64,000 bases of DNA from an uncultured Acidobacteriota bacterium (GCA_963749565.1 CAVVNL010000004.1:142628-206627), one strand, 5' to 3'; positions 10,894 through 61,932 are shown, numbered from the stretch's first letter. Made by a program: numbers and translations. The notes: generated by a model from the letters alone, not told the origin.

Positions 10894-11113
10894 CGGCTGT
10901 CCTCCCCCGACTAGCCACGAGCAAGACCCACGCCAGCGACCAGCGTCGGCGCGCCGGGGCGCCACACCGCTACAAGCGGCTGTCAACTAATGAGTTGTCT
11001 CGTAACGCGGACGGACAGGGTCCACGTGCGTGGCTCGAGGACCACACATGGAAGCGAAGGTCTTTTCGCTATTTCAAACGTTTTCCGACGGCCGAGAGAT
11101 TTACCGACGGGCC

Positions 11114-43269: not shown

Positions 43270-44655
43270 TTATTTGGGCGATGCGGGCGCCTGAATCGGG
43301 GTCTCGATCTGCTTGTGGCAGTAATCGCAGTCGGCGCTGATCTTCGATCCGTCCTTGGCCTCGTGCGAATCGTCGTGGCAGCGGAAGCAGCCGTTCGACG
43401 TGACGTGGCCCGTGTTGTTCGGATAGCTGCCCCAGGTCACGCTCATGTCCGGAAACACGTTCCGGCCATACAGTTGCTGCACCGCTTCGACGGCCTTCGT
43501 CACCGCCTGCTGGTCGATGGCGCCGGTCTGGCTTTTATAGAAATTCCGCAATCCTTCTTCGATTGCGCTCATGCCCGCTTCCTGGCTGGGGTACGTCGCC
43601 TTCACGAGGCGGAGGCTCTCGCGTCTTGCAAAGGGCAGTTCGTGGCTCACCATCGCGGCGGCGATGGCTTGATCGACGGCCCGCTCTGGTGTCGGCGAGA
43701 TGGGATGCCCGACCGTGTTGTGGCAGTCGACGCAGTCCATCGTTAGTCGATCGGCCGCGCGGATCGCCTCTTCCTTTGCGTCAGCCGCGAGGTACTCTTT
43801 GACCTGGCCGTTCGCGTCGGTCACTCGCACGTACGGGATCGTCTGCCGCTCCGCATCGGTCGCCACGTACTCGACGCGAACGGCAGGATCCGCATGCCAG
43901 TGAATCGCCCGCGCCGATGACGTCGTGACGCTCATGTGCATCTGCAGCACCGTCATGGTCCCGGTGTTGGCTTCGTCGTCGGCATAGTCGCGGATGACGC
44001 GGACGCGATCGCCGATCACGCGTCCGGGCGGGTGGCAGCCCTTGCACGTTTCCGCCTGGGCGCCGGGGGACATCTTGGCGCCGGGCGGAATCGGCCTCGG
44101 ATACGTATTGGTGGCGACCATCGCCAGCTGTCGTACGCCGGAAAGCTTCGCCTGCACCAAGGCCTTCGCCCCTTCTCCAATGTGACAGTCGACACAGGCG
44201 ACGCCGGAATGCGCCGCGCCCTGCCAGGCCTGGAACTGAGGGCGCATCGGCGTGTGGCACGTCTGTCCGCAGAAGCCTGGCGTTTCCATCGCGTGCAGGC
44301 CGCCGTACCCGGCCAGCAGAATGAGGACGATGTTGACCGCGGTGAGTGCCGCGATGAGGATGGCGGCTCGGCGGACGTTCGCGCGACGAAAATCGACGAC
44401 GGGCCATTCGGAGACCGCCGTTGGATCGCGAAGCAGTCTTCGTCGCTCGAGATGCATGCCCGCCGGGATGAGCAGAAGCCCCAGCACGAACACCGCTGGG
44501 ATGGCGATGAAGATCACCAGACCTGCGTACGGGTTGGTGAACATCCCCGCCAGCATGGCGATCACCATGGTGATGAACACCACGGCCGACGCCGTGGTGA
44601 CGACCGCCCCGACGATCGCGAGCGGGTGGCGCGCGAGCGCGCTGATCCTCATCAC
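43270..44655 (-). CDS. inner-membrane multiheme c-type cytochrome, NapC/NirT-like with three N-terminal TM helices (CymA/ImcH-like quinol dehydrogenase candidate)
   Basis: Three hydrophobic helices in the first ~125 aa. The NapC/NirT-like segment ETPGFCGQTCHTPM has one CX3CH. Five CXXCH motifs follow (CVDCH, CKGCH, CVDCH, CFRCH, CDYCH). Intact 461 aa. Confidence 0.75.
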   Translation of the reverse strand: MMRISALARHPLAIVGAVVTTASAVVFITMVIAMLAGMFTNPYAGLVIFIAIPAVFVLGLLLIPAGMHLERRRLLRDPTAVSEWPVVDFRRANVRRAAILIAALTAVNIVLILLAGYGGLHAMETPGFCGQTCHTPMRPQFQAWQGAAHSGVACVDCHIGEGAKALVQAKLSGVRQLAMVATNTYPRPIPPGAKMSPGAQAETCKGCHPPGRVIGDRVRVIRDYADDEANTGTMTVLQMHMSVTTSSARAIHWHADPAVRVEYVATDAERQTIPYVRVTDANGQVKEYLAADAKEEAIRAADRLTMDCVDCHNTVGHPISPTPERAVDQAIAAAMVSHELPFARRESLRLVKATYPSQEAGMSAIEEGLRNFYKSQTGAIDQQAVTKAVEAVQQLYGRNVFPDMSVTWGSYPNNTGHVTSNGCFRCHDDSHEAKDGSKISADCDYCHKQIETPIQAPASPK

Positions 44656-44664
44656 GAACGCTCG

Positions 44665-45018
44665 CTACTTCTTCAGACTCTGCATGTAGGCGACGAGCCC
44701 GTCGAGATCCGCCGCGGGCAGGCCGCCGTACTTCGCCGGCATGAGCGGCTTTTTCGTCGACTTGGCCTTCGCGGCGGCCTCGAGCGGGGTCACGATCCAG
44801 GCGCGGATGTCGGCGGCCGACAGCTTCGCGCCGACGCCGTCGAGCGGATTCGTCTTGCTACCAGCACCCGCGATGGAGTGGCAGATCGAACATTTCTGCG
44901 CGGCGTACACCTCCTGCCCCTTCTTCACCTGCGCGGCGTCCTGGGCATTCGCGATGCCGGCGGAAAAGACGAGAGCGAAGACAACGAGCCATCCCCTGGT
45001 CACGAGCGTCCTGTGCAT
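44665..45018 (-). CDS. periplasmic monoheme class I c-type cytochrome
   Basis: Signal MHRTLVTRGWLVVFALVFSAGIANAQ, a single CSICH, and a distal Met region KKPLMPAKY. 117 aa. Confidence 0.85.
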   Translation of the reverse strand: MHRTLVTRGWLVVFALVFSAGIANAQDAAQVKKGQEVYAAQKCSICHSIAGAGSKTNPLDGVGAKLSAADIRAWIVTPLEAAAKAKSTKKPLMPAKYGGLPAADLDGLVAYMQSLKK

Positions 45019-45060
45019 ACAGATCCTCCATGTGCCGAACCGGCGACGTGCCGGCCACTA

Positions 45061-47263
45061 CTACCAACGATACAGAATGCCGAACACCGCCGAGTGGGCG
45101 GTGTAGGGCCGATACACGTAGCCCATGACCAGCGAGCTCGGCTGCACGATGCCGTTGACCACGCTCGGGTCGAACGCGAAGTCGTAGATGCTCAGCGGCT
45201 CGTACAGGTACGAGAACGACGCGGCGAGGCGGTCGGAGAGCCGGTACCGCCCGTCGATGTGCAGCTGCTGCAGCTTGTTGAACACGTCGGGCAGCTGATT
45301 GGGCGGCGGGATCGGGCTGCCCGCCGGGATCGGCGTAGAGGTAGCTCCCCTCGGCGTAGCTGAAGTCGTAGGCGACGCGGATCTCAGTGTTGGCGCCGAT
45401 GCGTGGCGGGCTGGCGTAGATCGAGAAGTAATTCACCGTCTCGGTCGAATCGGCGGTCCAGTCGCGCAGCGGATCGTTGAACTGGGCCGTGGACGAATCC
45501 CCCTCGTGCGAGCGCTGCAGCCCGGCGTAGCGCTCGTAGTTGTAGCTCCCGCCCGCGCCAAAGCCGTTCGGCCGCTGGAAATCCGCCGCGAGCGAGAACG
45601 TACGGCCGGTGGAATCCTGCAGGCCGTAGAAGCTGTTGCTGAAGTCGTCCTTGAGGACGCCGGTGGCCACGCTGAACGTCCAGGCGTCGGACGGCACGAT
45701 ATCGGCCTGGGCCGTGAAGCGGTTCCTCGTCCGATCGGCGACGTCGTAGTGGCGCATCTTGGGTTGCTCGCCAATCGCCGTCAGCCGCGTTTCGTCGAGA
45801 TCTGAACCGGTGCGATCGCCGACCTCGTATTGCGTCCGGAAGGTGAGCCACGAGGTTCCGACGGCATCGGCCGACACGCGGAACACGTTCTCGCCGCTCG
45901 ACTCGAAGATCCGCGCATCGTAGCCGTTCCCGTTGTGCGAGTAGCCGACCGTGAGCGCGAACGGCATCAGTTTCGTCCACGTGGCGTCGCCGTCGAAGGT
46001 CGTCCGGCTGTGCGCGTAGAGGTCCGGACCGCCCGTTGGCGTCGTCGACGCCGAGGAGTCGTAGCTGACCATGTCCGTGATCGACGTCGCGGGCATGAGG
46101 TTGTCGTAGGTGTAGTTGCGCACGCGCGCGCTGAACCGCCAGTCGGTCGACGGGCGCGAGTTGAGGCTCAGGTTGGTCGAGAAGACGTGCGCTTCCCCCT
46201 CGGTGGTCGCGCGGGGCAGCGCGAACTGCGGCAGCGCCGCGTTGATCGTGAAGGGCTCCAGCGGCTCGTCGTTGCTCCACAGTCCATAGGAGAAGGAGCC
46301 CGTCACCTGCGTTCTGCGCGCCAGCTTGGTGTAGCCGCCGAAGCTGATCGTCTGGGCCGAGTTCGACGGCCAGAGGGACATGCGTCCGCGCCCCGGATTC
46401 TCGACCCCATCGTTGAGGTCGAGCGGGCTGTCCCAGACCAGCGTCGGCGCGAGGTTGTCGAACCACGATCCGCTGTAGGCGACACGCAGCATGTTGCGCG
46501 CGTTCGTCCACTCGGTGCCGATGGTGAAGTCGTTCGCGCGCGAATCGTAGGGGAGCGCCACCTCGACGTCGTTGCTGAAGCCGAAGCTGGCCCCCCAGGG
46601 CAGCTCGCCGCTGTGCTTCTGCGTGGTGAAGCTGGCCGTTGACGTCGAGGTTCGGCTTCGGCGTCGCGACCATGTCGAAACGGCCGATGTCGCGCCGCTC
46701 GCGCAGCTCGAACTGCGGCGCCAGCGGGACGTAGGCGTTGAGATTGGCCTGGCCGTTCTGGATCGCGCGCTGCGTCGCGTCGTCGAGCACCAGCGTGCCG
46801 CCGGTGCCCGTATACGGCGTCATCGTATCGACGCTGTAGAACTGCGGAATCTGCTGCCAGCTGCCGCTGAGCGACAGCTTGCCGATCCGGCCGTAAGTCC
46901 CCATGAACTCCTGGTCGCGGTAGCCGACGTTCTCGGCGCGCGCGTGGAAATCCCACGTACCGTCCGGCTTGGCGAACGAGTAGCGGAAGTTCGAGAACAG
47001 CAGCCCGTCGCGCTGGTCCTGGTAGCGCTGGTAGCGCGCCGGGTCGCCGTCCACGCTCGTGAAGCGGCCCCCGATGAGGAATTCGCGCGAGGTCGGCTCG
47101 AAGAGACTGCGCGACGCGACGCATCGGCCGCCGCGGGCGCGGCCGGCTGCGCCGGGGTCTGAGCCGATGGCTGCGCCGGCGGTTGGGCGGCTCCCTGTGC
47201 GAGTGCGGCACCGGGCGCGGCGAGGCCGAGCAGGGCGATCGTCGTGATGGCGAATCGGCGCAT
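45061..47263 (-). CDS. MtrB/PioB-family outer-membrane beta-barrel (decaheme-associated porin), three frame breaks
   Basis: Signal MRRFAITTIALLGLAAPGAALAQ and the family-typical DGDPARYQRYQDQRDGLLFSNFRYS. A long barrel with alternating aromatic strands ends in ...AVFGILYRW. The path is ORF 46820..47263, then 45384..47054, then 44858..46561, then 45061..45285 (breaks near 47105, 46590, 45300). Confidence 0.75.
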
Positions 47264-47276
47264 ACAGAGGCTCCGC

Positions 47277-48240
47277 TTACCGCATGTAGAACTGGCCCGA
47301 CGGGTGGTTCGAGCCGTGGACCTGCGAGTGGCAGTTCACGCACGATCTGCCGAACATCCGGTTGCTCTTGTTGGTGGTGATCTGGTCCTTGTCGTAGAGC
47401 GTCGCCGGGTGCCTGCTCGCGATGTGGCAGCGCTGGCAGAGCATCGGCATGCGGACGGCCAGCATGCGATCGTTCGACGACCCGTGCGGGTCGTGGCAGG
47501 TCGCGCAGTTCTCGCGCACCGGCGCGTGCTCGAAGAGCATCGGTCCGCGCATCTCGGTGTGACAGCTCGTGCAGAGCTCAGCGACGGAGCTGCCCGTCTT
47601 CAGGTTCTTGACGTTGGTGATCGAGCCGTGCGGGTTGTGGCACGAGCTGCAGGACATCTTGCCTTCGCGCACCGGCATGTGCGCGACGGCGCGTTCGGTC
47701 TTGGTCACCTGCAGCCGATGGCAGGTGGCGCACACCTGCGTTTCGGTCGTCTTCACCAGCTGCGCTCTGTGCCGACTTGCGGCGCTGTGGACGCTGTGGC
47801 ACGTCGCGCAGGACAGATTGCGCCGCGTCGTGCGCGCTGCCTTCCCACCCCGCGTGGGCGCCGCGGTTGTGACAGGTGAGACAGGTCTCGCTCACCTCCG
47901 CGGGCTTCATCTGCGCGAACTTCTTGATGTTCCCCTTGGCGTCGTCGTCAACGTGCGCCTGCCCGGGGCCGTGGCAGCTCTCGCACCCGTTGGCCGCCGC
48001 CGGCGACCGCGGATTCTTCGCCTGCGCGTGTTTCGAGCCCGTGAGGGTGGCCTCCTGATCGGTGTGGCAGAGGACGCAGGTATCGCTCCCGACATAGGCG
48101 ACCGGGGCGACCGGCGGAGTCGTCGCTTGTGCGGGAGCCGGCGGTGCTGGAGCGGCTCGAGTCGAGGAAGGAGGCGCAGAGATCAAACCGACAACGACCG
48201 TCGCCCAGAGCCACACGACCACCAAGACAAACCGTGTCAT
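47277..48240 (-). CDS. periplasmic decaheme c-type cytochrome, MtrA/DmsE/MtoA/PioA family (one frame break)
   Basis: Ten CXXCH motifs: CVLCH, CESCH, CLTCH (ORF 47578..48240); then CATCH, CATCH, CSSCH, CTSCH, CATCH, CQRCH, CVNCH in the frame of ORF 47277..47756 extended upstream (RNLSCATCH by hand translation). Family-typical end ...CHSQVHGSNHPSGQFYMR. The +1 break is near 47800. Confidence 0.85.
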
Positions 48241-48344
48241 GGCTACCTCAATCGATGACGCCCAACGCCGTCCAAGTCAGGCACGCACGATGCCTAGCAA
48301 ATGACGCGCCGCACGGCGGGCTCTCAATCAAGCGGCAGCCACTG

Positions 48345-48480
48345 CTCGCGCGCGTCACACTCGCGTCACTATAACGTGATCGAAATTGTGATCACTTAAA
48401 TGTGATCGCAAATGTGATCTCAAGGTCACGGTATGTGGTGAGCGATCACGGCGTGTGGCTAGCGTCACGGCGGGTGCGGT
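48345..48480. promoter_or_regulatory. array of short direct repeats (iteron-like) in the divergent intergenic region
   Basis: CGTCAC x2 (48351-48370). (C/T)GTGATC at 48375, 48387, 48401 and 48413 (spacing 12/14/12 nt), including the palindrome GTGATCAC. Then (G/A/C)TCACGG(N3-5)GTG(T/C)GG at 48424, 48444 and 48463 (spacing ~20 nt). The region is locally AT-richer than its flanks. Confidence 0.5.
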
Positions 48481-48598
48481 GCGCCAGCATGGTTCGCATC
48501 GCCGTGGCCCCACAGCGTACGCGCCTGCGTTCCGCGACCTAGCCAGACCCCGCGAGAAGGATCACCGTTTGCACCGGGCGCCTTCTTCCCGAAAAGGC

Positions 48599-48627
48599 TT
48601 GACACGTAGTGGACGCGAGCGCATAAC
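48599..48627 (+). promoter_or_regulatory. candidate sigma70-type promoter for the formate dehydrogenase operon
   Basis: TTGACA (48599-48604), a 17-nt spacer, then CATAAC (48622-48627). GGAGGA lies 5 nt before the ATG at 48702. Confidence 0.4.
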
Positions 48628-48701
48628 GTAGCGGCAGTCGGAGCCGGGTCTCACAACGGCGAGGAGAGAAACCGAAGACCGCAGTCGCACGGAGGAAACC
48701 C

Positions 48702-51700
48702 ATGGATGAATCCGCGGATGCTCCGACCCGGAACCCCTCCGAGAGCCCGTTGGATGGGAGTGGCACACCGACGTCGACAATCAGCCGCAGAGACCTGTTC
48801 AGGCTGACCTTCGGCGGTGGAGCAGGACTCGCGCTCGGCGGGCTCCTCGACGTTCCCGCGATGCGGGCCGCGACGAGGGACTTGAAGCTCTCGGACGTCA
48901 GCGAGTTCACCACCTCGTGCAACTTCTGCTCGTGCGGGTGCGGCATGATCGCCGCCGTCCGCGACGGCAAGCTCCTGACGATGGAGGGCGACTACGACCA
49001 CATCGTGAACCGCGGGGCGCTGTGCGTCAAAGGCATTTCCATGTTCGCGACGCACGCCTCCCCGAAGCGGCTCACGACGCCCCGCTACCGGGCGCCGGGC
49101 AGCGACCACTGGGAGGACATCTCCTGGGACGACGCGATCACGCGGGTCGCGCAGAAGATCCGGAAGACGCGCGACGAGACCTGGATCGCCACCGAGAAGG
49201 TGGATGCGCCTGAACTCGTCGTGGATCTCGCTGCGGGTGATCGGATCGAGAGCGCCCCACGGTTCGTCCCTCAGGAGGACGGCAACGCAGAGGTGCCGGT
49301 CAATCGCACCGACGCGATCGGCTTCATGGGCGGCGCGCAGAACACGAACGAGGAGTGCTACCTCTTCCAGAAGGCGGCCCGGCTGCTCGGCCTGGCTTAC
49401 GTCGAGCACCAGGCCCGGCTTTGACATAGCCCCACGGTCCCCGGTCTGGGGGCCACGTTCGGGCGGGGAGCGATGACCAACCACTGGGTCGACCTGCAGA
49501 ACTGCAAGACGATCCTGGTGGAAGGCAGCAACGTCGCCGAAAACCACCCCATGGCCTTCAAGTGGATCCGGAAGGCCCAGGAGAACGGGGCGAAGATCAT
49601 CCACGTCGATCCGCGATACACCCGGACCTCGGCGGGGGCGGACGTGTACGCGCGCATCCGGCCCGGCACCGACGCGGCGTTCCAGAACGCGATGATCAAC
49701 CACATCATCGTCAACAAGCTGTACGACGAGGATTACGTCGTCACCCACACGAACGCCCTCTACCTGGGCGACGAGGCGTTCGACTTCAAGGATGGGGTCT
49801 TCAGCGGCTACGACGAGGAGCACCACACCTACGACACCAAGACCTGGGGATACCAGCTCGACGCGAAGGGCAAGCCGCGCGATCGCCAGGAGCCTCGATG
49901 ACCCGCACTGCGTGTTCTCGCGCCTGAAGACCTTCGTCTCGCGGTACACGCTGGAGATGGGCGAGCGGATCACCGGCATTCCGGCCGATCAGATCCGGCA
50001 GATCGCGGAGACGATGGCGAAGAACCGGCCGGGATCCATCCTCTACGCGCTCGGGATGACCCAGCACACGACCGGTGTGCAGGGGATCCGGTCGTTCACG
50101 ATCCTGCAGCTCCTGCTCGGCAACATCGGCAAGCCCGGAGGCGGCGTCAACGCGCTGCGCGGCGAGCCGAACGTGCAGGGCGCGTGCGACATGGCGGTGC
50201 TCTACAACTACATGCCGGGCTACCTCAACTCGCCGACCAATGCCGAGCCGACGATCTACCACTACGTGCGCAAGAACGGGATCGCCGACAGCCGGTACCT
50301 CGTCAACACGCTCAAGGCGTTCTTCGGAGAGGCGGCCACCGCCGAGAACGACTATGCCTATGCCTGGCTGCCCAAGCGCGACGCGGCCAAGGACTACGGC
50401 ACCCTGCCGATGTTCGAGGATGCCCTCGCCGGGAAGCTGAAGCTCCTCTGGATCGTCGGCCAGAATCCCGCGGTCACCCTGCCCAACCTCAAGCTGACGT
50501 TCGACGCGATGGCGAAGCTCGAGACGCTCGTGGTCCAGGAGATCTGGGAGACCGAGACCGCGGCGTTCTGGCGCCGGCCCGGCGTCGACCCGAAGTCCAT
50601 CGCCACCGAAGTGATCCTGCTGCCCGCGGCGTTCTTCATGGAGAAGAACGGCACCATCAGCAACTCGGGCGGCATGGTGCAATGGCGCCACGCCGCCGTG
50701 AAGCCGCCGGGGCAGGCCAAGCCCGACGGCGAGATCGTGGACCTCGTCTTCCGCGCGGTGCGCGATCTGGTCAAGGACTCGAAGGAGCCGAGGGACGAGA
50801 TCATCCGCAAGGCCTTCTGGACCTACACCACGGCCGAGGACGTCCTGCGCGAGATCAACGGCTACGCCCTGCGCGACAACCCGGAGACCGGCCTCAAGGC
50901 GGGCGATCTCATCCGCAAGGTCGGCGATCTTCGGGCCGACGGTTCCACGTCGTCCGGCGCCTGGATCTACGCGGGCGTCTTCGCCAACGGCGAGAACCTC
51001 TCGAAGCGCCGCGACTCGACAACGGATCCGGGAGGCCTCGGCCTCTATCCGGGCTTCGGGTGGACCTGGCCCAACAACATGCGCATCCTCTACAACCGCG
51101 CGTCGTGCGACCGGAACGGCAAGCCCTATCCGGGCTCGAAACCCATCGTCTGGTGGGACGAGCAGGCGAAGCGCTGGACGGGATACGACGTGCCGGACGT
51201 CCCCGTCCTGACCGACGGACCCGACACGCCGAACGGCCAGCGGGCCTTCCACCTGGGCGCGGAGGGCGTCGGGCGCCTCTTCGCGGCCGTCTACACGGAC
51301 CCCGACGCGAGGTTCACCGAATATTGGCGCGACGTGGCCTACGTGCCGAAGGACGGCCCGCTGCCGGAGATGTACGAGCCCGTCGAGAGCCCGGTGGAAA
51401 ACATCCTTCACCCGGGCGTGAAGAGCAACCCGATGCTCAAGTATCCGCGCGTCGCGTCGCATCAGCCCATCGGCACCGCCGACAAGTTCCCCTACGTGCT
51501 GATGACGTCGACGGTCGCCGAACACTGGTGCTGCGGCTCGACGACGCGGAACATCCCCTGGCTCAACGAGCTCGTCCCCGAACCGATGGTGGAGCTGCCG
51601 GTCGCCCTCGCCCAGAAGCTCGAGATCACATCGGGGGACTGGGTCCGGGTCTCGTCGGCGCGCGGTGAGCTCGAGGTCAAGGCCCTCGTCACGCCCCGCA

Positions 51701-51921
51701 TGAAGGCGCTGAAAATCGGCGACCAGGAGGTCACCGTCGTCTGGATGCCGTACAACTGGGGCTTCCAGGGGCTGTCGACGGGTCCGAGCGTCAACCACAT
51801 CACGATCGACGCCACGGATCCTGGAGCGGGAACCCAGGAGACCAAGGCGTGCCTCGTCAACGTCGTCAAGACCGGCCGCCCGGCGGCGCGAAGATCCGGA
51901 TCACCGAGGGGACGCACATGA
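48702..51921 (+). CDS. fdhA: formate dehydrogenase catalytic (molybdopterin) subunit, Tat-exported, selenocysteine at UGA 49422-49424; one frame break
   Basis: Tat motif SRRDLFRL and Fe-S motif CNFCSCGCG. The active-site block EHQARL-U-HSPTVPGLGATFGRGAMTNHW has the TGA in frame between ORFs 48702..49424 and 49473..49901. A +1 break near 49886 leads into ORF 49792..51921 (GMTQHTTG, ALRGEPNVQG, ...ETKACLVNVVK). Confidence 0.9.
49422..49470 (+). promoter_or_regulatory. UGA(Sec) codon plus bacterial SECIS hairpin
   Basis: UGA CAU AGC CCC ACG GUC CCC GGU CUG GGG GCC. The stem GGUCCCC/GGGGGCC has the apical loop GGUCU, and GGUCUG starts 18 nt after the UGA. As I recall it, this is the same register as the E. 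coli fdhF SECIS. Confidence 0.75.
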
Positions 51922-54122
51922 CGCTAGCCGCGGACGCGGGCCCGATCAAGACAACGCTGATCGACATCGCCAACTGCATCGGCTGCCGGGCGTGCCAGGT
52001 AGCCTGCAAGCAGTGGAACGAGCGCGAGGGCGAGCAGACCGAGCTCGAGGCCGACATGGGCTTCCAGAACCCGGCGACGCTCAGCGCGAAGACGTACACG
52101 CTCATCGCGTTCCACGAGATGGAGAACCCGGCGAAGCCGGGAGGGCTGGATTCCGCCTACGTGATGCAGCGGTGCCTCCACTGCCTGGAGCCGGCCTGCG
52201 TCTCCGCCTGCCCGACGACGGCGCTCCAGCGGCAGGCCGACGGCCCGGTGTCGTATGAGGTCGACGAGTGCATCGGCTGCCGCTACTGCATGCTGGCGTG
52301 TCCCTGGGACGTGCCGACCGCGGACTGGAACACGCGCGCCCCGAAGATCTCGAAGTGCACGCACTGCGCCGACCGCGCCCCTCAGCCGGCGCCGATCGCG
52401 TTCAACGGGCAGCCGCTGTCCGACGATGCGGCCAGGCAGTTCGCCAACACCATGGCGATTCCAGCCTGCGTCAAGGCGTGCCCCGCCGACGCCCTGCGCT
52501 ACGGAACCCGGGACGAGATGCTGGCGCTCGCGCACAAGCGCATCGCCGACCGGCCCGACAAGTACGTCGACCACGTCTACGGAGAGAAGGAGCTGGGCGG
52601 GACGACCGTGCTGTACCTGTCGAGAGTGCCGTTCGAGAAACTCGGCTTCCCGACGTACGGGGAGAAGCCGTTTCCGGCCTTCACCACGGCGGCGCTCGGC
52701 GCCGTGCCCCCCGCCGTGATGGCCGTGGGCGCCCTGCTCGGCGCCGCGTACGCCTTCTTCCGGAAGCGGGCTCAGGCGGTGGCAGACGCATCGGCTGCGT
52801 CGGCGCATTCCGGACACCACGGCCCCGTTAAACACGTCGAATTCGAGCCGCTCCGGCACGCGCTGCTGACCCCCTTCAACTGGGTCCTCCTCATGCTCAT
52901 GGCGTTCGGCGGCGTCACGTTCGTCGCGCGCTTCGCCCTCGGACTCGGCGGCAGTACGAACCTCTCCGACACCTACCCGTGGGGCCTGTGGATCCTCTTC
53001 GACCTGGTGTGGATCGCGGTGGCCGCCGGCGCGTTCGCGATGGCCGGGGTGATCTATGTCTTCCAGCGAAAGGACCTCTACGGGCTGGGCCGCACCGCCG
53101 TCCTGATGGGCCTGCTGAGCTACTCCTTCGTGATGGTCACACTCATCGCCGACCTCGGCCTGCCCTGGAACTCCTACCAGCTCGCCCTGCAGGCTCCGGA
53201 GCACTCGGCCATGTTCGAGGTCTCGTGGTGCGTCGGCCTCTACGTCACGGTCCTCCTGCTCGAATTCCTGCCGGTGCCTTTCGGGCGTTGGGGATTCCAT
53301 CGGGCCGCGGCTGAATTACGGCGATGGAACGGCGCCTACGTGGCGGGGGCGGTGACGCTGTTCGTCTACCTGATGTCGCGCAGCCTCCTCTACGCGCTCG
53401 GGGCGGCCGTGATCTTCGGCGCCCTCGCCTGGATTTTCCGCGCGCGGGACGAGGGGGCCGAGCCGATCATGCTCGCGATCGCCGCCGTCACGCTGTCGAC
53501 CATGCACCAGAGCTCGCTCGGTTCCCTCTACCTGCTGATGCCGAACATGCTCGCCCCGCAGTGGTGGTCTCCCGTGATGCCCGTCTCCTTCTTCCTGTCG
53601 TCGATCGCGGCCGGCACCGCGCTCGTCATCCTCATCGACATGTGGATCGCGAAGGGATGGCGCCGCCCGCTCGAGATTACGCGGCTCGCCTCGGTCGGAC
53701 AGATCGCGTTCTGGGCGCTCCTTGTCTACCTCGTATTTCGCCTCGGAGACATGGCGATCCGCAACCAGCTCTCCGGAGCCTTCTCCGGCAGGCTCGGCAT
53801 GGCCTTCGCGGCCGAGATCCTCCTCGGCGGCGTGCTTCCGCTCGTCCTGCTGGCCCGCAGGTCGCTTCGCCAGCGTCCCGACGTGCTCTTCGTCGCGGCC
53901 CTCCTCGCGGTCGTCGGCGTGGCGTACAACCGCATGAACGTCGTAATCTTCGCGATGACTTTCCGGGGCCGCATGCCCTGGGGCGCACCGGAAACCTATT
54001 TCCCGTCGATCGTCGAGTGGGGCGTGTCGATCGGCCTGATCGCCGCGACGATCTTCCTCTTCGGCCTGGCGGCCCGTCTCATGCCGGTGCTCTCCCGGGC
54101 GCAGCCCAGCGAGGCACATTGA
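51918..54122 (+). CDS. fusion of a 4x[4Fe-4S] ferredoxin subunit (FdnH/HybA-like) with a HybB/NrfD-family integral membrane quinone-interacting subunit
   Basis: The ATG at 51918 overlaps the fdhA stop (ATGA). Cys clusters CIGCRACQVACKQWN, CLHCLEPACVSACP, CIGCRYCMLACPWDVP, CTHC...CVKACP. A TM helix follows, then ~8 more TM segments with HybB-like blocks (YPWGLWILFDLVWIAVAAGAFA, LSTMHQSSLGSLYLLM). Intact 735 aa from 51918. Confidence 0.8.
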   Translation: MTLAADAGPIKTTLIDIANCIGCRACQVACKQWNEREGEQTELEADMGFQNPATLSAKTYTLIAFHEMENPAKPGGLDSAYVMQRCLHCLEPACVSACPTTALQRQADGPVSYEVDECIGCRYCMLACPWDVPTADWNTRAPKISKCTHCADRAPQPAPIAFNGQPLSDDAARQFANTMAIPACVKACPADALRYGTRDEMLALAHKRIADRPDKYVDHVYGEKELGGTTVLYLSRVPFEKLGFPTYGEKPFPAFTTAALGAVPPAVMAVGALLGAAYAFFRKRAQAVADASAASAHSGHHGPVKHVEFEPLRHALLTPFNWVLLMLMAFGGVTFVARFALGLGGSTNLSDTYPWGLWILFDLVWIAVAAGAFAMAGVIYVFQRKDLYGLGRTAVLMGLLSYSFVMVTLIADLGLPWNSYQLALQAPEHSAMFEVSWCVGLYVTVLLLEFLPVPFGRWGFHRAAAELRRWNGAYVAGAVTLFVYLMSRSLLYALGAAVIFGALAWIFRARDEGAEPIMLAIAAVTLSTMHQSSLGSLYLLMPNMLAPQWWSPVMPVSFFLSSIAAGTALVILIDMWIAKGWRRPLEITRLASVGQIAFWALLVYLVFRLGDMAIRNQLSGAFSGRLGMAFAAEILLGGVLPLVLLARRSLRQRPDVLFVAALLAVVGVAYNRMNVVIFAMTFRGRMPWGAPETYFPSIVEWGVSIGLIAATIFLFGLAARLMPVLSRAQPSEAH

Positions 54123-54126
54123 GCCG

Positions 54127-54960
54127 ATGACTCCGGATCCGTGGTTGGATGCGCATTCGTACCTCCGGCCCCTGGCCGACCTCTCCGCCCAGGTCGATCG
54201 CGCGGCGGCCGGGATCGACGTCTTCGACGCCCGCATTCCCGACTGGGAGGATTACGGCGCGGACTTTCGCGCCGGCGTGCCGCTGCTGTCGAGCGCCGAC
54301 GCGGGCGTCGATCTCGAACCGGGTGGGCGAATGGCCGGAGCGCTTCTCGAAAGACTGGCCTCAGGCACGTCGTCGGGACAGTTCGCGACGGAGACGCGCG
54401 CGCTCGACACGGCACTGCGGCGGGTTCCACAGGTCTCGCGCCGCATCGCGGACTTTCTGCTGGGCCCGCTGAGCGATGAAACGTTCGCGCCGCCCTTCCC
54501 CGGGCTGTTGCGGTATCTGGCGTGGACGGCGATGGCGCGGTTCCTCCGTCCCGTGGTGAACGCCTTCGACGGTTGGCGGGACGAGGAGCGGTGGGGTCGC
54601 AGGTATTGCCCGACGTGCGGATCCCTGCCCGCGATGGCCCAGCTGGTCGGGTTCGACCCCGGGCGCAGGCGTCTGCTCTCGTGCGGCTGCTGCGGCACGC
54701 GCTGGCAGTTCAAGCGAACCGGCTGCCCGTTCTGTGAAACCGACTCTCAACGGCTCGCGAGTGTGACCATCGAGGGAGAACGCGGCCTGCGCATCGACCA
54801 CTGCGAGTCCTGTGGCGGCTACCTCAAAACCTACGACGGGGAGGGCAACGAGGCCCTCATGCTATCGGACTGGTCTTCACTCCATCTCGACCTCATCGCT
54901 CACGATCGCGGATTGAAAAGGCTGGCCGCATCGCTTTACGAGTTCGAGCCCGTTCTCTGA
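54127..54960 (+). CDS. fdhE: formate dehydrogenase accessory protein FdhE
   Basis: Four CxxC pairs: CPTCGS, CGCCGTRW, CPFCE, CESCGGYLK. Intact 277 aa. Confidence 0.85.
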   Translation: MTPDPWLDAHSYLRPLADLSAQVDRAAAGIDVFDARIPDWEDYGADFRAGVPLLSSADAGVDLEPGGRMAGALLERLASGTSSGQFATETRALDTALRRVPQVSRRIADFLLGPLSDETFAPPFPGLLRYLAWTAMARFLRPVVNAFDGWRDEERWGRRYCPTCGSLPAMAQLVGFDPGRRRLLSCGCCGTRWQFKRTGCPFCETDSQRLASVTIEGERGLRIDHCESCGGYLKTYDGEGNEALMLSDWSSLHLDLIAHDRGLKRLAASLYEFEPVL

Positions 54961-57138: not shown

Positions 57139-59579
<2,441 letters not shown>

Positions 59580-59601: not shown

Positions 59602-60891
59602 CTATTGCATGTTCGACGGCTGTCCGGTGGACGCCAGCACGCTGGTCCAGAGGACACCTTCCGGATCGATCTTCTTGCGCTCGGATACGGCAAGCGCGAT
59701 GGGTACGTGGGTGAACTGATGGTTCCAGAAACTGACGACCATGTTCGTCCGGCCCGTCATACCCGCATGCACGGCACAGTGCCCGAAGAGAAGACAGAAC
59801 GCCGAATCATGGGCGGTGGCCGGCACGCTCCGGATGGCATAGCTGGGGTCGATGTATTTGAGGCTGATCGGCATGCCGATCCGCTTGAAGTGATCGGCGA
59901 TCGCGTCGCGCAGGAACACGCCGACGTCTCCGTACTTGACGTTTCCAGACGCATCGCGCTGTCCACTCTGCGCCACGAGGTTCTGGCCGGCTCCTTCGGC
60001 CGCCACGATGACGGCATGGCTCCGCCGCTCGAGCCGCTGCTTCAGTGCGGACAGCAACTTCTCCAGCGTGAACGGGACTTCAGGAACGAGACAGAAGTCC
60101 ACCTGGCCATCAACGAGCGCTGAATAAGCCGCGATGAACCCGGAGTCGCGGCCCATGAGCTTCACGAGACCGACCCCATTGCCGGCGCTTTCGGCCTCGA
60201 CGCGGGCCGCAGATGTCGCGCGCCGCGCCTCGGTCACCGCCGTTTCGAATCCGAAGGTCTTCTGAACGAAAGATACATCGTTGTCAATCGTCTTCGGGAT
60301 GCCGATCACGCTGATGGCGAGTCCGCGGCTCGCCGCTTCGTCGCCGATCTTCTGAGCGCCGCGGAGCGTTCCATCGCCGCCGATCGCGAAGAGGATGCCG
60401 ACCCGCAGGTCGTGCAGCGTCTGGACCATCTCCGCCGGATCCTGGGGCCCGCGAGAGCTGCCGAGCACGGTTCCACCGACGGCATGGATCCGGTTGACAG
60501 TGTCTGGCGTCAGGGTGAGCGGCTCGTGCCCGTACCGACGCACGAGGCCCTCGTAGCCGAAACGAAATCCGTACACGGAGCGTACGCCGTAGTGGTTGTG
60601 CAGGCTCAGCACGATCGACCGGATCACGTCGTTCAATCCCGGGCAGAGGCCGCCGCACGTCACGATCCCGCACGAAAGCGTCGCCGGGTCGAAGAACAGC
60701 TTTTCTCGCGGTCCCGCGACTTCCATCGAGGGAAGGTCGGTGCGCGCATCCAGCCACGTCTTCGCCTGCGTCAACGTCGACGGATAGAGCGCGCGGTCGT
60801 CGTGCTGGCTGAAGCGAAGGCCGGTCATCGGCGACTGAAAGCGGCATTCGCCCAGCCGCGCGATCGTGAAATCGAGATCCTGCCCAGACAT
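59602..60891 (-). CDS. pfkA: ATP-dependent 6-phosphofructokinase (long, plant-like/group with GGDG)
   Basis: The ATG at 60891 gives MSGQDLDF. TCGGLCPGLNDVIRS, IGGDGTLRGA (GGDG argues for ATP over PPi), PKTIDNDV, MGRDSGFIA. This is the C-terminal 430 aa of the merged ORF 59602..61932. Confidence 0.85.
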   Translation of the reverse strand: MSGQDLDFTIARLGECRFQSPMTGLRFSQHDDRALYPSTLTQAKTWLDARTDLPSMEVAGPREKLFFDPATLSCGIVTCGGLCPGLNDVIRSIVLSLHNHYGVRSVYGFRFGYEGLVRRYGHEPLTLTPDTVNRIHAVGGTVLGSSRGPQDPAEMVQTLHDLRVGILFAIGGDGTLRGAQKIGDEAASRGLAISVIGIPKTIDNDVSFVQKTFGFETAVTEARRATSAARVEAESAGNGVGLVKLMGRDSGFIAAYSALVDGQVDFCLVPEVPFTLEKLLSALKQRLERRSHAVIVAAEGAGQNLVAQSGQRDASGNVKYGDVGVFLRDAIADHFKRIGMPISLKYIDPSYAIRSVPATAHDSAFCLLFGHCAVHAGMTGRTNMVVSFWNHQFTHVPIALAVSERKKIDPEGVLWTSVLASTGQPSNMQ

Positions 60892-60908
60892 GTGCGCCTT
60901 CCTGACGA

Positions 60909-61932
60909 CTACTTCATCATGGTCGTGCCGGCCGCCCTGAGTTCCGTCACGGCCTGTTTGACGCGTTCCGTCATCGCCTTCTCGGCGAGGCTCAAGTACG
61001 AGCGCGGATCGTAGGCCTTCTTGTTCCCGACTTCCCCGTCCACTCGGAGCACGCCGTCGTAGTTCTTGAAGAAGTGGCCGGCGATCGCGCGGGAGAAGGC
61101 ATATTGCATGTCCGTATCGACGTTCATCTTCACGACGCCGTAATCCAGCGCTTCGTGGATGTCGCGGATCTCGGACCCCGATCCGCCATGGAAGACCAGG
61201 TAGAACCGTGACGCCTCGCCGAACGCCTGGACGACCGACGTCCTGGCAGTCCTTGAGGATGGAAGGTTTCAGGGCGACGTGGCCCGGTTTGTACACGCCG
61301 TGCACGTTGCCGAACGTCGCGGCCAGCAGATATCGGGCGCCTGCCGCATTCATTCGTCGCGCGACTTCCAGCGTGTCCTCCGGTGTCGTGTAGAGTTTCG
61401 CGGCGGCGCTCGCCGCGACCCCATCCTCTTCGCCGCCAACGACGCCGGCCTCGATCTCGAGGATGAGGTCGCTTTTTTTGAATCGTTCGAGCAGCTTCAC
61501 TGCGATGTCGAGGTTCTCTTTCAGCGGCAACGCGCTGCCATCGAACATGTGGCCGGTGAACAGATTCGGCTTGCCGGCCGCCCGTCGCCGCTCCGTTTCC
61601 TCCACGAGTGGGATGACGAACGTGTTCACCTTGTCTGCCTGGCAGTGATCGGTGTGGAGCGCGACGTAAATCGGGTACCTGTCGGCGACACGGTGGACGT
61701 ACTCCGCGATCGACAAGGCACCGAGGGCCATGTCCTGCAGGCCGGCTCCAGATACGAAGGCGCCGCCGCCAGTCGACACCTGAACGATGCCGTCACTTCT
61801 ACTGTCGGCGAGTCCTTTCAGAACGGCGTTCGCCGTGCTCGGCGATGTCACGTTGACGGCGGGGTAGGCGAATCTTCCCCGCCGCGCCCGATCGAGCATC
61901 TCGCAGTAGGTCGCGTAGTCGGCTACCGGCAT
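60909..61932 (-). CDS. fba: class II fructose-bisphosphate aldolase (one frame break)
   Basis: YAYPAVNVTS, HTDHC, LEIEAGVVGGEEDGV, FGNVHGVYK, then after a +1 break near 61215 LVFHGGSGS (hand translation) and ORF 60909..61133 (MNVDTDMQYAF...). Confidence 0.85.

Follow-up and report, generated by a model that had tools for sequence, protein, structure and literature searches.

The DNA considered here, referred to below as the window, is a stretch of 64 kb in which two redox operons diverge from a 461-bp spacer (48241-48701). The leftward operon, on the minus strand, encodes an mtrA-like cytochrome, an MtrB/PioB porin and a NapC/NirT-like cytochrome, and the rightward operon, on the plus strand, comprises fdnG, a fused fdnH/nrfD and fdhE. 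Short repeats fill the middle of the spacer (48345-48483) and are flanked by promoter-like sites. The features are listed in order of coordinate.

43270-44655, minus strand: NapC/NirT-like cytochrome (Pfam Cytochrom_NNT)
about 44858-47263, minus strand: MtrB/PioB porin (Pfam MtrB_PioB)
47277-48240, minus strand: mtrA-like (DmsE-family) decahaem cytochrome c, first gene of the leftward operon (Pfam Paired_CXXCH_1, MtrC/MtrF domain)
48311-48296, minus strand: putative sigma-54 -24/-12 promoter facing mtrA, 5'-CGGCGCGTCATTTGCT-3' (PWM score 9.0)
48351-48369, plus strand: CGCGTCAC twice, 11 bp apart (repeat-family search)
48370-48425, plus strand: 12-bp tandem repeat with four GTGATC cores, units TATAACGTGATC, GAAATTGTGATC, ACTTAAATGTGATC and GCAAATGTGATC (Tandem Repeats Finder, period 12, 3.8 copies)
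48426-48483, plus strand: three 19-20-bp direct repeats, each opening with TCACGG, units TCACGGTATGTGGTGAGCG, TCACGGCGTGTGGCTAGCG and TCACGGCGGGTGCGGTGCG (repeat-family search; Tandem Repeats Finder, period 20)
48461-48468, plus strand: AGCGTCAC, third copy of the CGCGTCAC-type repeat (repeat-family search)
48558-48573, plus strand: putative sigma-54 -24/-12 promoter facing fdnG, AGGATCACCGTTTGCA (PWM score 10.5)
48599-48627, plus strand: TTGACA-17-CATAAC, candidate sigma-70-type promoter (TTGACA at 48599, CATAAC at 48622, 17-nt spacer)
48702-51921, plus strand: fdnG, Tat-exported molybdopterin formate dehydrogenase large subunit (Pfam Molybdop_Fe4S4, Molybdopterin, Molydop_binding)
51849-54122, plus strand: fused fdnH/nrfD (Pfam Fer4 families and NrfD)
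54127-54960, plus strand: fdhE (Pfam FdhE)

In this assembly the mtrA-like gene is split by a frameshift; its orthologue in a closely related locus, L081, is intact at 320 aa and has homologues named 'DmsE family decaheme c-type cytochrome'. A further frameshift affects fdnG near 49790-49900. Overlapping pairs of open reading frames are seen in mtrA (47578-47756), mtrB (44858-47263) and fdnG (49792-49901), and also at enolase (58244-59558) and in an aldolase/phosphofructokinase region (59602-61932). Most likely the frameshifts are indel errors of long-read data and the genes are not pseudogenes. Within fdnG, a TGA in frame (49422-49424) follows the residues ...VEHQARL. Because the reading frame continues beyond it and the homologues, annotated as formate dehydrogenase major subunit, are all called as fragments of ~240 aa that stop at the same codon, this triplet appears to be a selenocysteine codon. 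Downstream of fdnG, an FdnH-type 4Fe-4S protein and an NrfD-type membrane subunit are fused in one 757-aa open reading frame, a fusion kept at 75-93% identity in most related loci. The records nearest to the window are of Vicinamibacterales type or come from long-read metagenome-assembled genomes labelled 'uncultured Acidobacteriota', and the host probably belongs to Vicinamibacterales within Acidobacteriota. A TPP riboswitch (RF00059; 21985-22089, minus strand; 65.7 bits, above the gathering score) is the sole Rfam family in the window.

Within the spacer, CGTCAC occurs on the plus strand at 48353 and 48364, the two copies recorded in the original prediction, and a third time at 48463. Four plus-strand (C/T)GTGATC copies start at 48375, 48387, 48401 and 48413, exactly where they had been placed, with GTGATC cores at 48376, 48388, 48402 and 48414; the second of them forms the palindrome GTGATCAC (48388-48395), likewise as described. 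The 10-nt motif AAATGTGATC is exact in two of these units and carries one or two changes in the other two. The copies are not one helical turn apart, as had been proposed, but are spaced by 12/14/12 bp, which sets the first and last GTGATC sites on nearly opposite faces of the helix. The TCACGG-led units begin on the plus strand at 48426, 48446 and 48465, a spacing of 20/19 bp, or two turns. The predicted period of ~20 bp is thus borne out, whereas the predicted form TCACGG-N-GTGYGG fits two of the three units, the first reading GTGGTG. Tandem Repeats Finder returns a period-12 array at 48376-48423 (3.8 copies), a period-20 array at 48425-48476 (2.7 copies) and a period-26 higher-order repeat. 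A TCAC-N8-GTGA dyad lies within the first TCACGG unit and the other TCACGG units contain no clean dyad; the left array includes everted TCAC-N6-GTGA dyads, and the GTGATC units themselves are direct repeats. Read on the minus strand, the 12-bp block is a fourfold GATCAC(A/G) pointing to mtrA, and on the plus strand the right units show (G/A)TCACGG directed at fdnG. The two arrays therefore share an RTCAC core in mirror orientation, each pointing to its nearer promoter, from which it lies at enhancer distance. Measured from the repeats, the start of mtrA (48240) is 105-240 bp away and that of fdnG (48702) 222-357 bp; the repeats are not 130-230 bp upstream of both.

The repeat cluster is not due to chance. 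TCAC and GTGA tetramers number 11 in the 141 bp from 48345 to 48485; the window averages 1.0 per 141 bp and elsewhere never exceeds 5. Four same-strand GTGATC copies within 45 bp arose in none of 400 whole-window Markov simulations, in none of 20,000 simulations trained on the spacer and in none of 20,000 trained on the array. Three of the window's five copies of TGTGATC fall in the array. The claim that these repeats form a real, non-random array in the regulatory spacer between two divergent redox operons consequently stands. GATC, by comparison, is common across the genome (595 copies in 64 kb), so that its clustering alone is unremarkable; five GATC in 70 bp arose in 124 of 400 simulations, and a Dam/GATC cluster was dismissed as an explanation.

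The original prediction overlooked both the outward-facing sigma-54-type promoters of this spacer and a CTCCG-N6-CGGAG dyad found at the same place in orthologues. The promoter sites were scored with a matrix, TGGCACG-N4-TTGCW, that approximates the published consensus and from which sigma-54 dependence is predicted only. The matrix agrees with the published Geobacter RpoN consensus TTGGCACGGTTTTTGCT, and the RpoN promoter of the selenocysteine fdnG operon of Geobacter sulfurreducens has been mapped experimentally (PMC2725144). The window's pair is of moderate strength (9.0 and 10.5) among the 19 sites in 64 kb that score at least 9, the fdnG-side site ranking sixth of ~128,000 positions. From these sites, transcription would start near 48285 (minus strand) for mtrA and near 48584 (plus strand) for fdnG, which would put the GTGATC units at about -94 to -132 from the former and the TCACGG units at about -111 to -150 from the latter.

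An outward-facing -24/-12 pair like that in the window was found in 0 of 500 dinucleotide shuffles, and the pairs of L006, L007, L011, L024, L026 and L075 likewise each gave 0 of 500, with 1 of 500 for L083; the design recurs in seven of 13 other syntenic loci. Over 14 spacers, outward sites average 9.1 vs 4.4 for inward sites (Wilcoxon p = 5e-5). L081 has the mtrA-side site unchanged, and minus-strand counterparts of this site in the seven loci just named score 10.0-13.2. On the other side, the fdnG-side 16-mer is identical in L006, where it sits inside a conserved block of an otherwise unalignable spacer, and plus-strand equivalents score 11.1-15.8 in L007, L011, L012, L014, L024, L026 and L075. 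When 78 fdnG loci were scanned, upstream sites that reached at least the 99th percentile of the background were almost confined to the mtrA-syntenic group. Three syntenic loci (L082, L083 and L085) have no good plus-strand sigma-54 site, yet keep the TTGACA block. Signatures of enhancer-binding proteins (GAFTGA, ESELFGH, Walker A) occur in no frame of the 64 kb, and the related loci contain no gene for such a protein, apart from an incomplete one at the outer end of L003, a non-syntenic locus.

Several further observations bear on such sites. An extra GATCAC at 48560-48565 overlaps the -24 part of the putative fdnG promoter, and given this overlap a protein binding the RTCAC core could also occupy the fdnG promoter itself. 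The best sigma-54 match in the window, TGGCGTGGGTCTTGCT (10920-10935, minus strand, score 13.3), is intergenic and precedes by ~25 nt the GTG at which a 779-aa open reading frame probably starts; the N-terminus of this frame resembles, by eye, a Clp-type ATPase. A site at 1383-1398 that resembles the fdnG one was dismissed because it lies inside a coding region. In eight loci (L035, L042, L044, L045, L048, L049, L050 and L074, among them Acidoferrales/Sulfotelmatobacter-type records), a conserved 16-mer, TGGAGCAAGCCTTGGA, or variants of it, is found at a distance of 20-96 nt upstream of the fdnG match; in layout it recalls a sigma-54 site, with GG in place of GC at -12.

The divergent mtrA/fdnG arrangement is found in L006, L007, L011-L014, L024, L026, L059, L075, L081-L083 and L085. 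Syntenic spacers share the 16-bp dyad CTCCG-N6-CGGAG, which took the top rank in an unbiased dyad count. It is perfect in L006, L059, L075 and L083, is doubled at 19-20 bp in L007, L024, L026 and L075, and always lies between both promoters, 52-189 bp from each. The scaffold runs in a constant order: promoter, ~60-115 bp, repeats, ~50-190 bp, promoter. CTCCG-N6-CGGAG dyads are absent from the window's spacer, and TCAC repeats stand in their place. The TCACGG units occupy the dyad slot, with 115 bp to the left -24/-12 site, 75 bp to the right one and the same 20-bp phasing, and the GTGATC block adds DNA to the stretch from that slot to the mtrA-side promoter; with the block set aside, the left distance would be ~65 bp, like that of the orthologues (62-97 bp). 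A matrix built from 13 orthologous dyad sites, which themselves score 16-29, gives a best score of -3.2 in the window's spacer, a value equalled or bettered by 81% of shuffles, so the equivalence of TCACGG units and CTCCG dyads is positional only. By eye, the reverse complement of the first TCACGG unit does resemble an L024 dyad with one indel, and the idea that the unit is itself the orthologous dyad was rejected on the failed matrix test.

A sharp change of identity at the fdnG start was seen when L082, L083 and L085 were compared with positions 45560-52420 of the window. In these three loci the fdn side is 93-95% identical to the window and the mtr side ~84%, and the spacer is unalignable. 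Such a break suggests that recombination took place or that the two sides evolve at very different rates.

L081 is the only close relative that carries the GTGATC array, and is 97% identical to the window in nucleotide sequence over 5.3 kb. Its block has three units, GTGATCGCAAAT, GTGATTGCAAAT and GTGATCGCAAG, at an exact 12-bp period (12/12), where the window has four. TCACGG is kept in all three right units of L081 at a spacing of 20/20 bp, and the TCAC-N6-GTGA dyads of the left array become N8. The GTGATC core shows one change in 42 positions over the seven units of the two loci, being invariant in six of them, and the linkers vary in both sequence and length. Constraint on the core accounts better than neutral drift for such conservation amid variable linkers. 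The central spacer is at the same time the most divergent part between the window and L081, which also fits relaxed constraint. With head-to-tail units present in four vs three copies in close strains, the GTGATC array is a lineage-specific, copy-number-variable tandem repeat.

The array was sought more widely. It is upstream of fdnG in none of 80 related loci, and the ~0.9 Mb of related loci together with the window contain only two chance pairs of GTGATC besides the array itself. A metagenome scan for two adjacent units (AATGTGATNGCAAATGTGAT) gave 24 matches, all unrelated and mostly of low GC content, and look-ups of FdhE and of the FdnG fragment as exact proteins returned no match. The nearest MtrA homologue beyond L081 in a collection of 5.8 billion proteins is 78% identical; it is encoded by L112, where three scattered RTCAC lie in just 138 bp of upstream sequence. 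The original prediction had named absence of the motif elsewhere and lack of conservation in orthologous intergenic regions as observations that would tell against it, and for GTGATC both largely hold: no second array of this motif occurs in the 64-kb window or in the ~0.9 Mb of related loci, and a single 97%-identical strain conserves it. The literature on an RTCAC or GTGATC motif yielded analogies only. A 12-bp minisatellite of ~8 units, AAATGTGATCAT and variants, was observed at 8940-9020 of L111 and at about 450-560 of L093; the contig has 37-38% GC, is devoid of long open reading frames and is probably eukaryotic, its likeness to the window's unit arising by chance.

On the fdnG side, the TTGACA-17-CATAAC promoter had been predicted at the coordinates given above. 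The coordinates are confirmed and its TTGACA block is conserved, but the -10 element is not conserved (CATAAC vs CAAGGT), and a consensus scan did not call the site. TTGACACG is invariant in an alignment of the window, L081, L082 and L083, and the block is also seen by eye in L007, L085 and L113. Conservation in four aligned lineages and presence in three more make it likely that the TTGACA block is a genuine element. The CTCCG dyad of L082 and L083 stands ~23 bp upstream of it. A protein binding that dyad might instead activate a sigma-70-type promoter, making a classical activator possible for fdnG.

The reading favoured here, to which we assign a probability of about 0.5, is that the repeats are the central enhancer/operator of a bidirectional control region flanked by two outward sigma-54-type promoters. 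The promoter at 48311-48296 would drive the mtrA-mtrB-napC-like porin-cytochrome operon leftward, and that at 48558-48573 the fdnG-fdnH/nrfD-fdhE formate dehydrogenase operon rightward. In the relatives, dyads 20 bp apart would carry activator dimers on one face of the DNA, able to reach either promoter by looping. In the window's lineage the CTCCG dyads have given way to repeats with another core, RTCAC, three 20-bp-spaced TCACGG units facing fdnG and four GATCAC units facing mtrA. Protein binding is the most plausible role of the repeats, and the RTCAC cores may be bound by a regulator whose gene lies outside the window and which co-regulates both operons; it would most likely be an enhancer-binding protein of changed specificity that activates both sigma-54 promoters via looping. 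The GTGATC block may have arisen recently, via tandem duplication of one binding unit, and its copy number, still varying by strain, would alter how many sites there are and how far the enhancer lies from the mtrA promoter. Formate oxidation and the outer-membrane electron conduit would as a result be induced together.

Well-known upstream activating sequences of sigma-54 promoters include those bound by NtrC at glnAp2, by NorR, with three sites, at norV and by FhlA at fdhF/hyc. The window resembles such systems in having several phased sites 80-200 bp upstream of a GG-N10-GC promoter, with a 20-bp spacing that keeps them on one face, and in placing one enhancer between divergent promoters. 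For each array a -24/-12 match lies downstream in the right orientation, these matches being moderate and computational, and the sites fall ~80-200 bp upstream when counted from the predicted starts. To our knowledge, RTCAC matches no known site of an enhancer-binding protein. Enhancer-binding proteins usually bind inverted repeats, and the enhancer reading is weakened because only the first TCACGG unit is a clean dyad and half of the window's sites, the GTGATC copies, are 12-bp direct tandem repeats. The window also differs from the classical systems in having no activator gene adjacent to the sites and in a sigma-54 dependence that is only predicted, and against the same reading stands the occurrence of the array in two near-identical genomes only. 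The resemblance to the CTCCG-N6-CGGAG spacers extends to the same genes, the same promoter-like sites, a 19-20-bp spacing and one to three units; the sequence differs, however, and a second array in the opposite orientation is added in the window. The target in the window would be a formate dehydrogenase operon, as it is for FhlA. In Geobacter, fdnG is RpoN-dependent (PMC2725144).

The GTGATC array might alternatively be a separate operator of head-to-tail direct repeats, of the OmpR/PhoB type or bound by a BldC-like small MerR-type protein, that controls the mtrA operon independently of the TCACGG units; we consider this possible, if rather unlikely. TorR is one direct-repeat binder of the OmpR/PhoB type. 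Others are known from cited work: M. tuberculosis PhoP binds direct repeats of TCACAGC (PMC3413638), BldC binds two or four direct repeats AATTXXXX(C) cooperatively (PMC5859096), and ArcA, whose targets are respiratory genes, uses operators with three direct repeats (PMC4173790). In all three, a variable number of same-orientation short repeats, two to four, is bound cooperatively. The window's four same-orientation copies of a 10-nt motif with an invariant core fit this pattern, as does their position nearer to mtrA than to fdnG, and AATGTGATC fits the BldC repeat with one mismatch. The period is nevertheless 12-14 bp (12/14/12 in the window, 12/12 in L081), and not the 10-11 bp of those families, so that the response-regulator-type phasing of the original prediction is not borne out. 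No gene for a response regulator or small MerR-like protein was found nearby, the genes read being metabolic or encoding kinases, and no regulon is visible, the motif occurring nowhere else in the 64-kb window or the ~0.9 Mb of related loci. The RTCAC core common to the right array suggests, moreover, one binder rather than two.

Equally doubtful is that the GTGATC block is a neutral variable-number tandem repeat, left by replication slippage in a fast-evolving spacer, devoid of any binding role and at most altering the spacing of other elements. Its head-to-tail 12-bp structure and its four vs three copies in genomes so closely related speak for such an origin, as do its absence from every other orthologous spacer, the divergence of the central spacer from L081 and the chance occurrence of similar AAATGTGATCNN minisatellites in unrelated low-GC contigs. 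The core is, however, far better kept than the linkers (1 change in 42); RTCAC is enriched outside the tandem block too, as the 11 tetramers in 141 bp attest; and a promoter-like site, toward which the block is oriented, is at enhancer distance from it. Variable-number tandem repeats in promoter regions are known to tune or switch expression in pathogens such as Neisseria and Haemophilus. The window shares with these a short tandem repeat in the promoter-enhancer spacer and a copy number that differs between close strains, and differs from them in that two alleles only were seen and that the unit is long (12 bp) and imperfect, for which reason slippage rates should be low. That the 12-bp GATCAC repeat serves as a heritable tuning device, altering the number of sites, the distance from enhancer to mtrA promoter and the helical phase, is an improbable proposal. 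Were it true, related soil strains would express the electron conduit at different levels relative to formate dehydrogenase, and the change would be accompanied by a recent switch in regulator specificity from CTCCG to TCAC half-sites.

Two other readings have very little in their favour. A structured RNA, whether a leader or a small RNA, would account for folding that is much stronger than in shuffles on both strands (z = -4.3 and -5.4), but the signal is symmetric between strands, as dyads at the DNA level would give, the region lies upstream of both candidate promoters, and the 12-bp deletion in L081 removes the main hairpin. The best Rfam hit to the region has E = 0.32 and none reaches the gathering score; a riboswitch, including the Moco family that would suit a molybdoenzyme, was rejected for want of a match. 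Operators of the CRP/FNR family, or plasmid-type iterons and an origin, are about as implausible. The units are directly repeated, and AAATGTGATC would equal one half of the E. coli CRP consensus. The palindrome TGTGA-N6-TCACA, already described as unsatisfied by this motif, is approached within two mismatches in the array at 48454-48469 alone, which is not above chance (12 such matches in the window vs 14.8 expected), and the dyads that do exist are everted (TCAC-N6-GTGA) with a spacing that L081 does not keep. The iteron-type binding suggested earlier finds no rep gene, origin or plasmid similarity in the window; the flanks are respiratory operons, the GC-skew profile has no switch at the site, and the 12-bp unit is shorter than typical iterons, which measure ~17-22 bp. 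A site for IHF (WATCAANNNNTTR) was also considered and rejected, there being no match with at most one mismatch in the spacer, and the GATCAC units differing by 3-4 mismatches by eye.

The repeats are real and non-random, and they are probably a functional cis-regulatory region of a familiar kind with a lineage-specific motif. Nothing in it should surprise a specialist in bacterial transcription; it is of value as a defined target and as two motifs with which regulons could be predicted in these genomes. More useful is a by-product, the conserved bidirectional sigma-54-type scaffold joining the mtrAB-like and fdn operons, with a central operator that turns over. While the promoter scaffold stays constant, the enhancer sequence of the locus turns over rapidly: unrelated operators are carried by genomes with 93-97% identical fdnG genes, and one lineage adds a strain-variable tandem repeat. 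If the enhancer reading is true, one bidirectional sigma-54 enhancer would control a periplasmic formate dehydrogenase with selenocysteine as well as a porin-cytochrome electron conduit. Extracellular electron transfer would then be turned on along with formate oxidation in soil Vicinamibacterales-like Acidobacteria, a testable statement about an abundant, uncultured soil group.
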